From positions 26,659 to 90,658 of the forward strand of contig CAVVFV010000012.1 of the NCBI GenBank assembly GCA_963747695.1: 64,000 bases of DNA. The letters run 5' to 3'. Below, one piece after another: positions 20,609-22,024 of this stretch; within the stretch, counting starts at the first letter, position 1, and each line of letters begins with the position of its first letter. This stretch comes from Candidatus Falkowbacteria bacterium. GTDB lineage: Bacteria > Patescibacteriota > Patescibacteriia > Patescibacteriales > WJLG01. Made by a program: the position numbers and the translations under genes. The notes under the pieces are model-generated. The model worked only from the letters and a program-made list of their open reading frames with translations. It did no database searches and was not told the DNA's origin.

Positions 20609-21607
20609 ATGTCAAGTACTAAGGAAATACAACGCAGAATAAAATCCATCGGCAATACTAAGAAAATCACCAAGGCGATGGAAATGGTCTCGGCCGCCAA
20701 GATGAGGAAAACCATCGAGGCGGTATTGAAGACGCGGTCATACGCCAATTTAAGCTGGATGACAGTTTTAAATATCGCTTCTTCGGTGCACGCCGGAAAA
20801 TATCTGCATCCGCTTTTGGCGACTCGCAAGGAAATAAAGCGCGAGGCGATAGTTCTTATCACTTCCAATCGCGGTCTTTGCGGCAGTTTCAATTCGGCCG
20901 TGATCGCCAAAGCGGTCAATTCGATCAAGAAACATCATGTTGAAGAAATAAAACTGACCGAGAGCGTAAGTGCTAAAGTTGATCGAGGAGTTGATTTTAT
21001 CTTGTTGGGCAAAAAAGGCATTTCGGTAAAATCCCGCTACAATTATAATATTGCCGCCGAATTCATCAAAGAAGACGTGGCCTATCAAGCTAAAGAAGTT
21101 GTGCCGGTCGCCAAGATGATCATCAATGATTTTCTTTCCGGAAAATATGATAAGGTGATGGTGGCTTATACCGATTTTGTCAGCCCGTCCAAGCAGATTC
21201 CCCGCGTCAAGCAGATCTTGCCGATCGATTTGGCAGCCAAGGATCATCATTTGGGAATCGTCGGTCAGGATCCGAAGATCGGCGCCGACGCTGAATTTAT
21301 CAAAGCCAAAGAAGAAAAATATTTGCACGATGAAAAGCACGAATCCTATGTTTTTACCTATGAACCGTCGGCCGAAGAAGTTTTGAATGAAATTTTGCCG
21401 AGATTGTTGGAAGTTCAGTTGTTCCAGGCTTTGTTGGAATCCAACGCCTCCGAGCATTCCGCCCGCATGGCCGCGATGCATAAAGCCACCGATGCCGCCA
21501 AAGATCTGGTCGCCGAGCTTACCTTATATTATAACAAGGCTAGGCAGGCGGCGATTACGAGAGAAATTTCAGAAATTAGTGCGGGCGTATCGGCCATGAA
21601 CAGTTAA
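20609..21607 (+). CDS. atpG: F0F1 ATP synthase subunit gamma (long form, 332 aa)
   Basis: N-terminal KEIQRRIKSIGNTKKITKAMEMVSAAKMRK and C-terminal helix signature. Confidence 0.9.
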   Translation: MSSTKEIQRRIKSIGNTKKITKAMEMVSAAKMRKTIEAVLKTRSYANLSWMTVLNIASSVHAGKYLHPLLATRKEIKREAIVLITSNRGLCGSFNSAVIAKAVNSIKKHHVEEIKLTESVSAKVDRGVDFILLGKKGISVKSRYNYNIAAEFIKEDVAYQAKEVVPVAKMIINDFLSGKYDKVMVAYTDFVSPSKQIPRVKQILPIDLAAKDHHLGIVGQDPKIGADAEFIKAKEEKYLHDEKHESYVFTYEPSAEEVLNEILPRLLEVQLFQALLESNASEHSARMAAMHKATDAAKDLVAELTLYYNKARQAAITREISEISAGVSAMNS

Positions 21608-22024
21608 AATTATAAATTATAGATTATAAATTATAAATTTAATGAAGGAGGAAAACATTATCAAAGATAAAAGCCACAAATTTGCTTTAAGAATAATTAA
21701 ATTATATAAATATTTAGTCAGTGAAAAGAGGGAATATGTTTTATCTAAACAGGTGTTAAGGAGCGGTACGTCGATAGGCGCAAATGTTGAGGAAGCAATC
21801 GGCGGTCAATCCAGGAAAGATTTTGTTGCCAAAATATGCATAGCTTACAAAGAAGCGCGTGAAACGAAATATTGGTTGGAGCTGCTGCGCGACGGGGAAT
21901 ATCTGGAAAAAGTATTTGCCAAATCAATTTTAGATGACTGTAACGAGATTTGTAGGATAATTGGGAAGATTCAATTAACTTGTAATAATAAAAATTTATA
22001 ATTTATCATTTATAATTTATAATT
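21607..22024. mobile_element. IR-bounded cassette carrying a four-helix-bundle (Avd-like) gene between atpG and atpD
   Basis: aaattataaattatagattataaattataaatttaatg (left) vs aaatttataatttatcatttataatttataattatg (right). Confidence 0.5.
21642..22001 (+). CDS. Four-helix-bundle protein (23S rRNA intervening-sequence protein / DGR Avd-like family)
   Basis: KFALRIIKLYKYL...SKQVLRSGTSIGANVEEA...KDFVAKICIAYKEARETKYWLELL matches family hallmark segments; low GC. Confidence 0.7.
   Translation: MKEENIIKDKSHKFALRIIKLYKYLVSEKREYVLSKQVLRSGTSIGANVEEAIGGQSRKDFVAKICIAYKEARETKYWLELLRDGEYLEKVFAKSILDDCNEICRIIGKIQLTCNNKNL

Follow-up and report, generated by a model that had tools for sequence, protein, structure and literature searches.

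What is a gene from the family of 23S rRNA intervening-sequence proteins doing inside an ATP synthase operon? The question is raised by a 64,000-nucleotide stretch of DNA from a Candidatus Falkowbacteria bacterium (assembly GCA_963747695.1, contig CAVVFV010000012.1, positions 26,659 to 90,658; hereafter the window), in which an open reading frame (ORF) of 119 amino acids (aa) lies between atpG and atpD, bounded by inverted repeats. ORF-bearing intervening sequences (IVSs) of 23S rRNA have been known since the 1990s. Here, we describe the cassette, its relatives and the readings it allows, of which we favour, at a probability of about 0.6, that it is a stand-alone element of the S23p/23S-rRNA-intervening-sequence class, seated in an mRNA operon rather than in an rRNA gene and looped out by a terminal stem. 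The feature, picked out in a preliminary description of this DNA, is real; its key property, absent from that description, is that its arms are built of heptad arrays conserved along with the gene across phyla. Its parts and immediate neighbours are as follows.

20609 to 21607, plus strand: atpG (F1 gamma; Pfam), the upstream host gene, whose stop codon adjoins the left arm
21603 to 22029, plus strand: the entire element, closed by a predicted terminal stem of about 36 bp (minimum free energy and centroid RNA folds; consensus of 15 cassettes)
21608 to 21635, plus strand: left terminal arm, four tandem heptads (AATTATA AATTATA GATTATA AATTATA), the pairing spanning 21603-21640 with the atpG stop codon included
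21642 to 22001, plus strand: S23p / 23S_rRNA_IVP four-helix-bundle ORF, 119 aa (PF05635, TIGR02436)
21997 to 22024, plus strand: right terminal arm, four tandem heptads (TATAATT TATCATT TATAATT TATAATT), the pairing reaching 22029 with the atpD start codon included
22025 to 23416, plus strand: atpD (F1 beta; Pfam), the downstream host gene, whose ATG adjoins the right arm

The insert, 21608-22024 (417 nt), makes up the complete atpG-atpD spacer: the first base of the left arm directly follows the atpG stop codon and the last base of the right arm directly precedes the atpD ATG. The ORF begins 6 nt past the left arm and ends on a TAA that falls within the first heptad of the right arm, the units of which are the reverse complement of those on the left. 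A repeat search delimited the arms as 21603-21640 and 21992-22029, each 38 nt long, 89% complementary and separated by 351 nt, nearly coinciding with the inverted-repeat flanks that the preliminary description had placed at 21607-21645 and 21992-22024. The 17-mer ATTATAAATTATAAATT occurs, with at most two mismatches, seven times in the window against 0.07 expected, six of the seven lying within the two arms. The AT-richness previously noted for the ORF is borne out, with a G+C content of 34% (30% for the whole insert) versus 46% in atpG and 50% in atpD, and tblastn found this to be the only PF05635 copy in the window.

The family assignment made at the outset also holds. The ORF product matches Pfam PF05635 (23S_rRNA_IVP; E 1.6e-28, 99.5 bits against a cut-off of 33.8) and NCBIfam TIGR02436 (‘four helix bundle protein’; E 7e-31, 106.6 bits against a cut-off of 24), and it carries the family motif RxxxSxxxNxxE, as defined in PMC3936711, at R40, S44, N48 and E51. 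An AlphaFold2 model consists of four helices (predicted local distance difference test score 93) and compares with PDB 2RLD (BT_0352, S23p family) at template modelling (TM) scores of 0.90-0.96 and 54% sequence identity, the sequence match to this five-chain structure having an E value of 2e-34. As the homologue Xcc0516 is a toroidal homopentamer (as cited in PMC4990558), homology with it and with 2RLD leads us to infer that the product is probably a ring-shaped homopentamer. Pfam, NCBIfam, PHROGs and PADLOC revealed no domain in the ORF besides PF05635, and no transposase, HUH or endonuclease domain was recognised. Membership of a defence system or phage family was rejected, there being no PADLOC or PHROGs match and only 4 loci on viral contigs, versus at least 569 genomic loci. 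The family itself is large: a word-indexed search returned more than 8000 relatives at E < 1e-5, and 10,505 representatives of 50%-identity clusters were found at E <= 1e-3.

That the cassette was inserted between atpG and atpD, as first supposed, can be judged from the same junction in relatives (compared loci are given L numbers). Across 80 metagenomic atpG loci the atpG-atpD spacer usually measures -6 to about 60 nt, and relatives with AtpG proteins 54-58% identical (L087-L089) have AT-rich spacers of 24, 7 and 11 nt. Other loci of the AtpG cluster (90% identity) that includes the window hold different inserts at the junction, namely a minus-strand ORF of 84-89 aa in L167/L168 and L169 and an ORF of 199 aa in L170/L171, which also carry a PF05635 gene of a different subfamily, with AAATTTn heptads on its flanks, between atpD and atpC. 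Its foreign base composition, together with the short spacers (7-24 nt) or other inserts of the relatives, shows the cassette to be an insertion. The contig of a homologue whose protein is 90% identical repeats the 34-nt and 23-nt gene spacings of the window, a 79%-identical homologue lies between grpE and hsp20 in an hrcA-grpE-hsp20-dnaK operon, and other cassettes sit at hsdS-hsdR, RND pumps and cmr3-cmr2. Recent duplication was rejected for two cassettes 3 kb apart on one Flavobacterium contig, which are just 76% identical.

The preliminary description had the gene sitting alone in the ATP synthase operon, an incomplete account, since the operon also harbours a GIY-YIG cassette, two small minus-strand ORFs and several other periodic hairpins. 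The GIY-YIG ORF (17072-17368, between atpF and atpH) is itself bounded by inverted repeats (17004-17406) of the form GTCATTCCCGCG(C/A)AGGCGGGAATCCAG, two direct copies upstream and one inverted copy downstream; the gene occupies the same place in the relative L170, is absent from L167 and, like the PF05635 ORF, begins with ATGAAGGAGG. The small ORFs, 17864-18121 (minus strand, 85 aa) and 20143-20532 (minus strand, 129 aa), occupy the atpH-atpA and atpA-atpG spacers, had no Pfam match and look hydrophobic by eye. As close relatives have other small ORFs in these two spacers, every spacer of the window's atp operon is variable, and atp operon spacers of the Candidate Phyla Radiation (CPR) are recurrent landing sites. 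Among other CPR atp operons, one has a distant PF05635 gene between atpA and atpG (L103:1886-2197), and another has, between atpG and atpD, an ORF of roughly 190 aa that looks by eye like the ORF6N/KilA-N type (L090:3895-4470).

How general is this build? A genome scan yielded 80 homologue loci in 80 genomes, with 81 strong ORFs and proteins 59-74% identical, spanning Patescibacteria, Bacteroidota, Cyanobacteria, Acidobacteriota, Lentisphaerota, KSB1, Verrucomicrobiota, Gemmatimonadota and others. Their common architecture is (AATTAnn)x4, the ORF, then (nnTAATT)x4. With an array defined as at least three AATTAnn heptads and an upstream search zone of 160 nt, an array precedes 61 of the 81 strong homologues, an inverted array follows 64 and both are present in 52, against a background of 0.11 arrays per kb elsewhere in these loci. 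Exactly four units per arm is the commonest state, found on the left in 35 and on the right in 31 of the 52 doubly bounded cassettes. The left arm ends 0-3 nt from the ATG, or its final unit, AATTATG, itself provides it, and the stop TAA is that of the first CGTAATT unit. By a simple ORF heuristic, in 25 of 34 cases the start of a co-oriented downstream gene falls between -2 and +9 nt of the arm, and in 23 of 38 the stop codon of the upstream gene falls between -6 and +15 nt of it; the arms carry stops in all frames, so that a spurious start within three codons would arise by chance in about 14% of cases, far under the observed rate. Convergent stops and tRNAs are also abutted by element ends. 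Most of the 52 fully bounded cassettes are stand-alone, single-gene units wedged tightly between housekeeping genes, and the distribution as a whole shows an inserted, horizontally distributed cassette that is placed tightly at gene boundaries in operons. Rfam searches of 19 loci and the window found no rRNA, only tRNAs and an L10 leader, and an rRNA context for the subfamily of this ORF was rejected on that ground.

Around more distant PF05635 genes the flanking arrays are composed of different units; most are inverted, and the period is chiefly 7, in some cases 8 or 9. The heptads are TCGCAAG in Nostoc, TGACCAG/CTGGTCA in Euhalothece, AATTCAA (four copies) in N. flagelliforme, ATGAAGG in Chlorohelix, AATGATG at the grpE-hsp20 copy and CTCTCCG in Treponema, where both ORF-flanking arrays run in the same direction; octads accompany a gene in a viral contig, and 9-mers the second PF05635 paralogues of two Acidobacteria. 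Period 7 is thus the common denominator of the flanking arrays. Three genomes (L035, L069 and L044) have two PF05635 paralogues each, with two different dialects, yet a single dialect spans many phyla, so that the repeats move together with the gene rather than being a property of the host; within the loci compared, the repeat dialect is shown to follow the protein subfamily, not the host. No paper containing the repeat strings, or linking PF05635 to such arrays, was found in the open-access literature, and the inverted-heptad-array architecture is family-wide and apparently undescribed as a class. Some arrays have expanded to 14-34 heptads (L017:849-1086, L073:2426-2544, L022:2-134 and L176:1850-1940), resembling slippage of the microsatellite type, and at L013:1856-2301 forward and inverted AATTACG arrays enclose no PF05635 gene; there they surround a fragment that by eye resembles the target-recognition domain of a type I restriction S subunit.

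If the arms are read as RNA, they would form the long complementary terminal stem that is characteristic of an IVS. Folding of the window sequence loops the insert out by this stem in both the minimum free energy and the centroid structures, with a stability of z = -2.9 that none of 100 shuffles equals, and brings the atpG UAA beside the atpD AUG, both codons being taken into the predicted stem. RNAalifold on 15 cassettes placed 21 of 30 predicted pairs in the terminal stem, the remainder forming two short helices inside the ORF; of the 30 pairs, six have changed on both sides with pairing kept, and five of these six belong to the terminal stem. At variable heptad positions, the two arms of one element agree in 72% of cases versus 59% in shuffled pairings, a level reached in 0 of 1000 shuffles, and the cassettes examined thereby show that arm complementarity is maintained. 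No terminator-like site and no convincing promoter were found within the cassette; promoter matches in the arms were not counted, being merely the TATAAT-like heptads of the AATTATA dialect. The idea of a split ribosome-binding site rejoined by the stem fits some loci by eye and was dropped as a general rule, since the window has no Shine-Dalgarno sequence there and that of a Firmicute lies downstream of the right arm.

The same repeats occur without a gene. In the loci examined, 17 ORF-less hairpins consist of a forward array (F), a loop of 11-50 nt and an inverted array (R), with none of the opposite polarity, and the window contains one, between the Rfam L10 leader (8801-8924) and the start of rplJ (9008).

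8929 to 8998, unstranded: solo heptad hairpin (AATTACA AATTAGG AATTACA, a 14-nt loop and five inverted units), matching the cassette arms in repeat type and polarity

Composite forms of the order F-ORF-F-loop-R, seen at L011, L026, L028, L059, L061 and L065, suggest that the ORF can be lost through recombination between direct arrays. Five AATTAAA-like heptads at 61854-61888, within the gene for a B12-binding radical SAM protein (61541-63016), are probably a chance occurrence in AT-rich coding DNA.

The closest known counterpart is the 23S rRNA IVS with an S23p ORF, as found in Leptospira, Coxiella burnetii, Xanthomonas, Brucella and the CPR, with which the cassette shares the protein family PF05635; in the CPR, 23S_rRNA_IVP ORFs occur within insertions of both 16S and 23S rRNA (PMC11270868). 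The IVS of C. burnetii measures 428 nt and has a 28-bp terminal stem, within which RNase III cleaves, and immediately upstream of its S23p start codon it carries tandem heptameric repeats, GACAGAT, in variable number (PMC4990558). Its size is thus close to the 417 nt found here, its stem equals four heptads, as do the arms here, and in both elements heptameric repeats adjoin the start of an ORF that is sense to the host transcript. The differences are equally plain: the present cassette occupies the intercistronic spacer of a protein-coding operon rather than helix 25 or 45 of 23S rRNA (Rfam finding no rRNA in the window), its heptad is AATTATA rather than GACAGAT, and its ORF is intact and strongly conserved, whereas that of Coxiella is decaying and probably untranslated (PMC4990558). 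Excision by RNase III without religation is known for the IVSs of Coxiella, Leptospira and Salmonella (PMC4990558); there it is established, whereas for the mRNA-borne cassette it is presumed.

From these elements a mechanism can be proposed. As the cassette has neither a terminator nor a convincing promoter of its own, it would be transcribed by read-through of the atp operon, whereupon the arms would pair in the transcript into a stem of about 36 bp, looping out the whole insert and placing the atpG stop beside the atpD start. Since RNase III excises the homologous rRNA intervening sequences on such a duplex, it would be expected to cut the stem and remove the cassette RNA from the polycistronic mRNA, leaving atpG and atpD on separate mRNAs; excision of this kind would let the element occupy essential, highly expressed operons with little polar damage. 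More speculatively, the pentameric ring might bind the four to five heptads of an arm, about one unit per protomer, and such binding could control the element's own translation or processing, the left arm touching the ATG, or promote its spread. The ORF-less heptad hairpins would then be decayed or non-autonomous derivatives.

A second line of comparison is provided by the STRR sequences of cyanobacteria (STRR standing for short tandemly repeated repetitive), 7-bp tandem repeats that form hairpins in intercistronic spacers such as that of hupS-hupL, with a function called unknown (PMC2670836); they also occur inside the gene for RNase P RNA (Vioque 1997, as cited in later work). The cassette, with its four plus four heptads, and the solo hairpin at 8929-8998 likewise consist of tandem 7-nt units able to form an intercistronic hairpin, and the cyanobacterial PF05635 genes at L176, L177 and L181 are flanked by inverted heptad arrays of STRR-like build. 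The unit at L176 presumably resembles a published STRR unit. STRR sequences were, by contrast, described without an associated gene and as specific to (heterocyst-forming) cyanobacteria, whereas the host here belongs to the Patescibacteria group, the unit is AATTATA/AATTACG and a conserved gene lies between the arrays, which are found in Patescibacteria, Bacteroidota, Acidobacteriota, Lentisphaerota and others. No paper linking STRR sequences to PF05635 genes was found in the open-access literature. It is possible, and we put it forward tentatively as something short of probable, that stand-alone PF05635 genes, ORF-bearing 23S rRNA IVSs and STRR-type heptanucleotide hairpins form one cross-phylum class of mobile element, in which a pentamer reads one arm heptad per protomer, insertion occurs at exact gene boundaries in highly expressed operons and RNA genes, and ORF-less hairpins are non-autonomous or decayed copies.

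The favoured reading, an intervening-sequence-class element looped out of an mRNA, has a number of points weighing against it. That RNase III cuts mRNA-borne copies is an extrapolation from the rRNA elements, that the protein binds heptads is a proposal, and the match of four to five units to a pentamer is at present numerology. Roughly one cassette in four has no co-oriented neighbour, which weakens a strict dependence on read-through, and the gene-boundary distances come from the simple heuristic mentioned above. Among very close relatives, none with an exact empty site was found: every relative with AtpG at least 90% identical has some insert at the junction; no transposase or endonuclease was recognisable in the ORF or noticed beside the cassettes; and flanking direct repeats gave no consistent signal of target-site duplication, their lengths being near control with a slight excess at 5-7 nt (6 versus about 1.8 expected). 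Lastly, mismatches between the arms, read on the sense strand, show no excess of G.U over A.C (31 versus 35), so that selection for pairing in the sense RNA is not demonstrable and DNA-level terminal repeats are equally compatible; selection of the stem specifically as sense RNA was rejected on this ratio. The unbiased mismatches suit a DNA transposon-like element or one resembling a miniature inverted-repeat transposable element, in which the heptad arrays would be terminal inverted repeats or single-stranded DNA hairpins, recognised by the element's own protein or, in trans, by a recombinase (for example of the IS200/IS605 or RAYT type), and the RNA stem a by-product. Sharp conserved ends, arms of fixed length, a dialect that moves with the protein subfamily across phyla, polymorphism of presence, absence and position among close relatives, and F-ORF-F-loop-R forms that fit recombination between arrays all speak for it, as does the single polarity of the ORF-less hairpins, 17 to 0, which recalls derivatives of the REPIN type. 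The resemblance to repetitive extragenic palindromic (REP) sequences, REPINs and their RAYT transposases extends to a gene flanked by inverted short repeats and to many dispersed intergenic ORF-less hairpins of fixed polarity; it ends at the gene, which has PF05635 as its sole domain and is not an HUH/Y1 transposase, and at the repeats, which are tandem heptad arrays rather than single REP palindromes, and the mobility of the cassette is putative. With no transposase, HUH or endonuclease domain in the ORF and none noticed beside the cassettes, no consistent target-site duplication and homologous rRNA elements that act as RNA stems cut by RNase III, we regard a purely transposon-like origin as unlikely, if still a serious contender; it is compatible with the favoured reading, since views of the arms as an RNA stem and as DNA-level terminal repeats are not mutually exclusive.

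Could the host instead have domesticated the cassette? An intercistronic regulatory module, with a hairpin that governs how stable or how well translated the atpG and atpD mRNAs are relative to each other, a role suggested for the STRR hairpins between hupS and hupL (PMC2670836), and with an ORF that is a passenger or a genome-wide trans factor for such hairpins, would suit a stem in which the atpD start codon is sequestered and which borders on the atpG stop, the frequency with which cassettes and solo hairpins end 0-9 nt ahead of a start codon (25 of 34 co-oriented cases) and the solo hairpin between the L10 leader and rplJ. The content of the junction, though, is not conserved even at AtpG identities of at least 90% and distant relatives manage with spacers of 7-24 nt, from which it follows that the host does not need the cassette; the same cassette also turns up in the unrelated operons grpE-hsp20, hsdS-hsdR, RND pumps and cmr3-cmr2, and we consider this explanation improbable. 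The emphasis that the preliminary description placed on diversity-generating retroelements (DGRs) and their accessory variability determinant (Avd) has fared worse. No Pfam family is associated with DGRs more often than PF05635, which is enriched beside their reverse transcriptases (PMC10053308), the four-helix-bundle fold belongs to the same superfamily as the Avd of Bordetella phage BPP-1 (bAvd), both bAvd and S23p proteins being pentamers, and the 64 kb of the window belong to a contig that measures at least 163 kb, leaving room for an orphan Avd that works with a reverse transcriptase encoded elsewhere in the genome. Yet the model is a distant match to bAvd (4DWL; E 0.12, TM 0.69-0.76, or 0.69-0.80 with 8UB7_E included), similarity to bAvd by sequence was undetectable with phmmer against PDB, and the 54% identity to 2RLD places the protein on the S23p branch. 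Pfam found no reverse transcriptase (RVT) domain in the 30 largest ORFs of the window, the window holds no long direct repeat of the template/variable type, there is no PHROGs or PADLOC match, and the homologues, rarely viral, stand alone between housekeeping genes just as this cassette stands alone between its heptad arms. A DGR component was accordingly rejected for the window, and an orphan Avd is very improbable. Genes for 23S_rRNA_IVP proteins have also been listed as associated with cas loci or CRISPR (PMC3936711, PMC10910872), an association that may be incidental; in Pleurocapsa PCC 7327 such a gene lies between cmr3 and cmr2, 6 nt from cmr2, in a tight operon-internal placement like that of the cassettes here.

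The window contains many further repeats, and periodic hairpins at gene boundaries seem to be unusually abundant in this genome. A family of hairpins with 8-nt tandem units (ACTAATTA / TAATTAGT) occurs at 18245-18334, 8156-8198, 37081-37131, 44072-44192 and 55482-55516, one of them directly upstream of the atpA start codon, and a similar array follows atpG in L169. At least five more intergenic inverted-repeat families of short tandem units were seen, comprising TATTGTCA octads, a CGAATAC type, GTATTTC heptads upstream of mraZ, an AAGTAAG heptad hairpin and the GGAACGCAA type, in the coordinate groups (a) 5875-5965, 7603-7723, 40999-41045 and 51499-51614; (b) 1745-1876, 9537-9648, 19857-19897, 42341-42381 and 55086-55126; (c) 41417-41522 with 41716-41895; (d) 46307-46379; and (e) 800-856, 25151-25190, 28600-28655, 47711-47751 and 60218-60291. 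A GC-rich hairpin repeat, TTTTGTCATCCTGAGCGCCGCGCGAAGGATCT, is present at 14559-14590, 19924-19955 and 63093-63124, one copy lying in the atpA-atpG spacer, and a similar sequence is found in the atpG-atpD spacer of L169. Two copies, 83% identical, of a repeat of about 290 nt (10164-10454 and 54184-54496) end in a GC-rich 50-mer, which occurs a third time, inverted, at 16409-16460; the repeat has no Rfam match and could be a non-coding RNA or a small mobile element. A direct repeat of 154 nt (7799-7952 and 8005-8158, 81% identical, 206 nt from start to start) lies upstream of the L10 leader region. The large ORFs 10446-12737 (minus strand), 35706-36974, 38336-39772 and 40002-40925 (307-763 aa) had no Pfam match at E <= 1e-5.

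The atpG-atpD cassette, selfish in appearance, belongs, then, to the S23p/intervening-sequence class, occupies an unusual site for that class, in an essential mRNA operon, and offers a natural case of a 400-nt insert tolerated between two essential cistrons. S23p/IVS ORFs and heptanucleotide hairpins have both long been known, the cited literature still calls their function unknown, and some 10,500 50%-identity clusters of the family are annotated merely as ‘four helix bundle protein’. Seeing these genes as heptad-bounded cassettes explains their presence inside unrelated essential operons and rRNA genes, and cautions against annotating them through guilt by association. Were the genes, the IVSs and the heptanucleotide hairpins indeed one class, the Avd/S23p superfamily would gain a primary role in binding RNA or DNA repeats, and its part in DGRs would have been recruited from that role.

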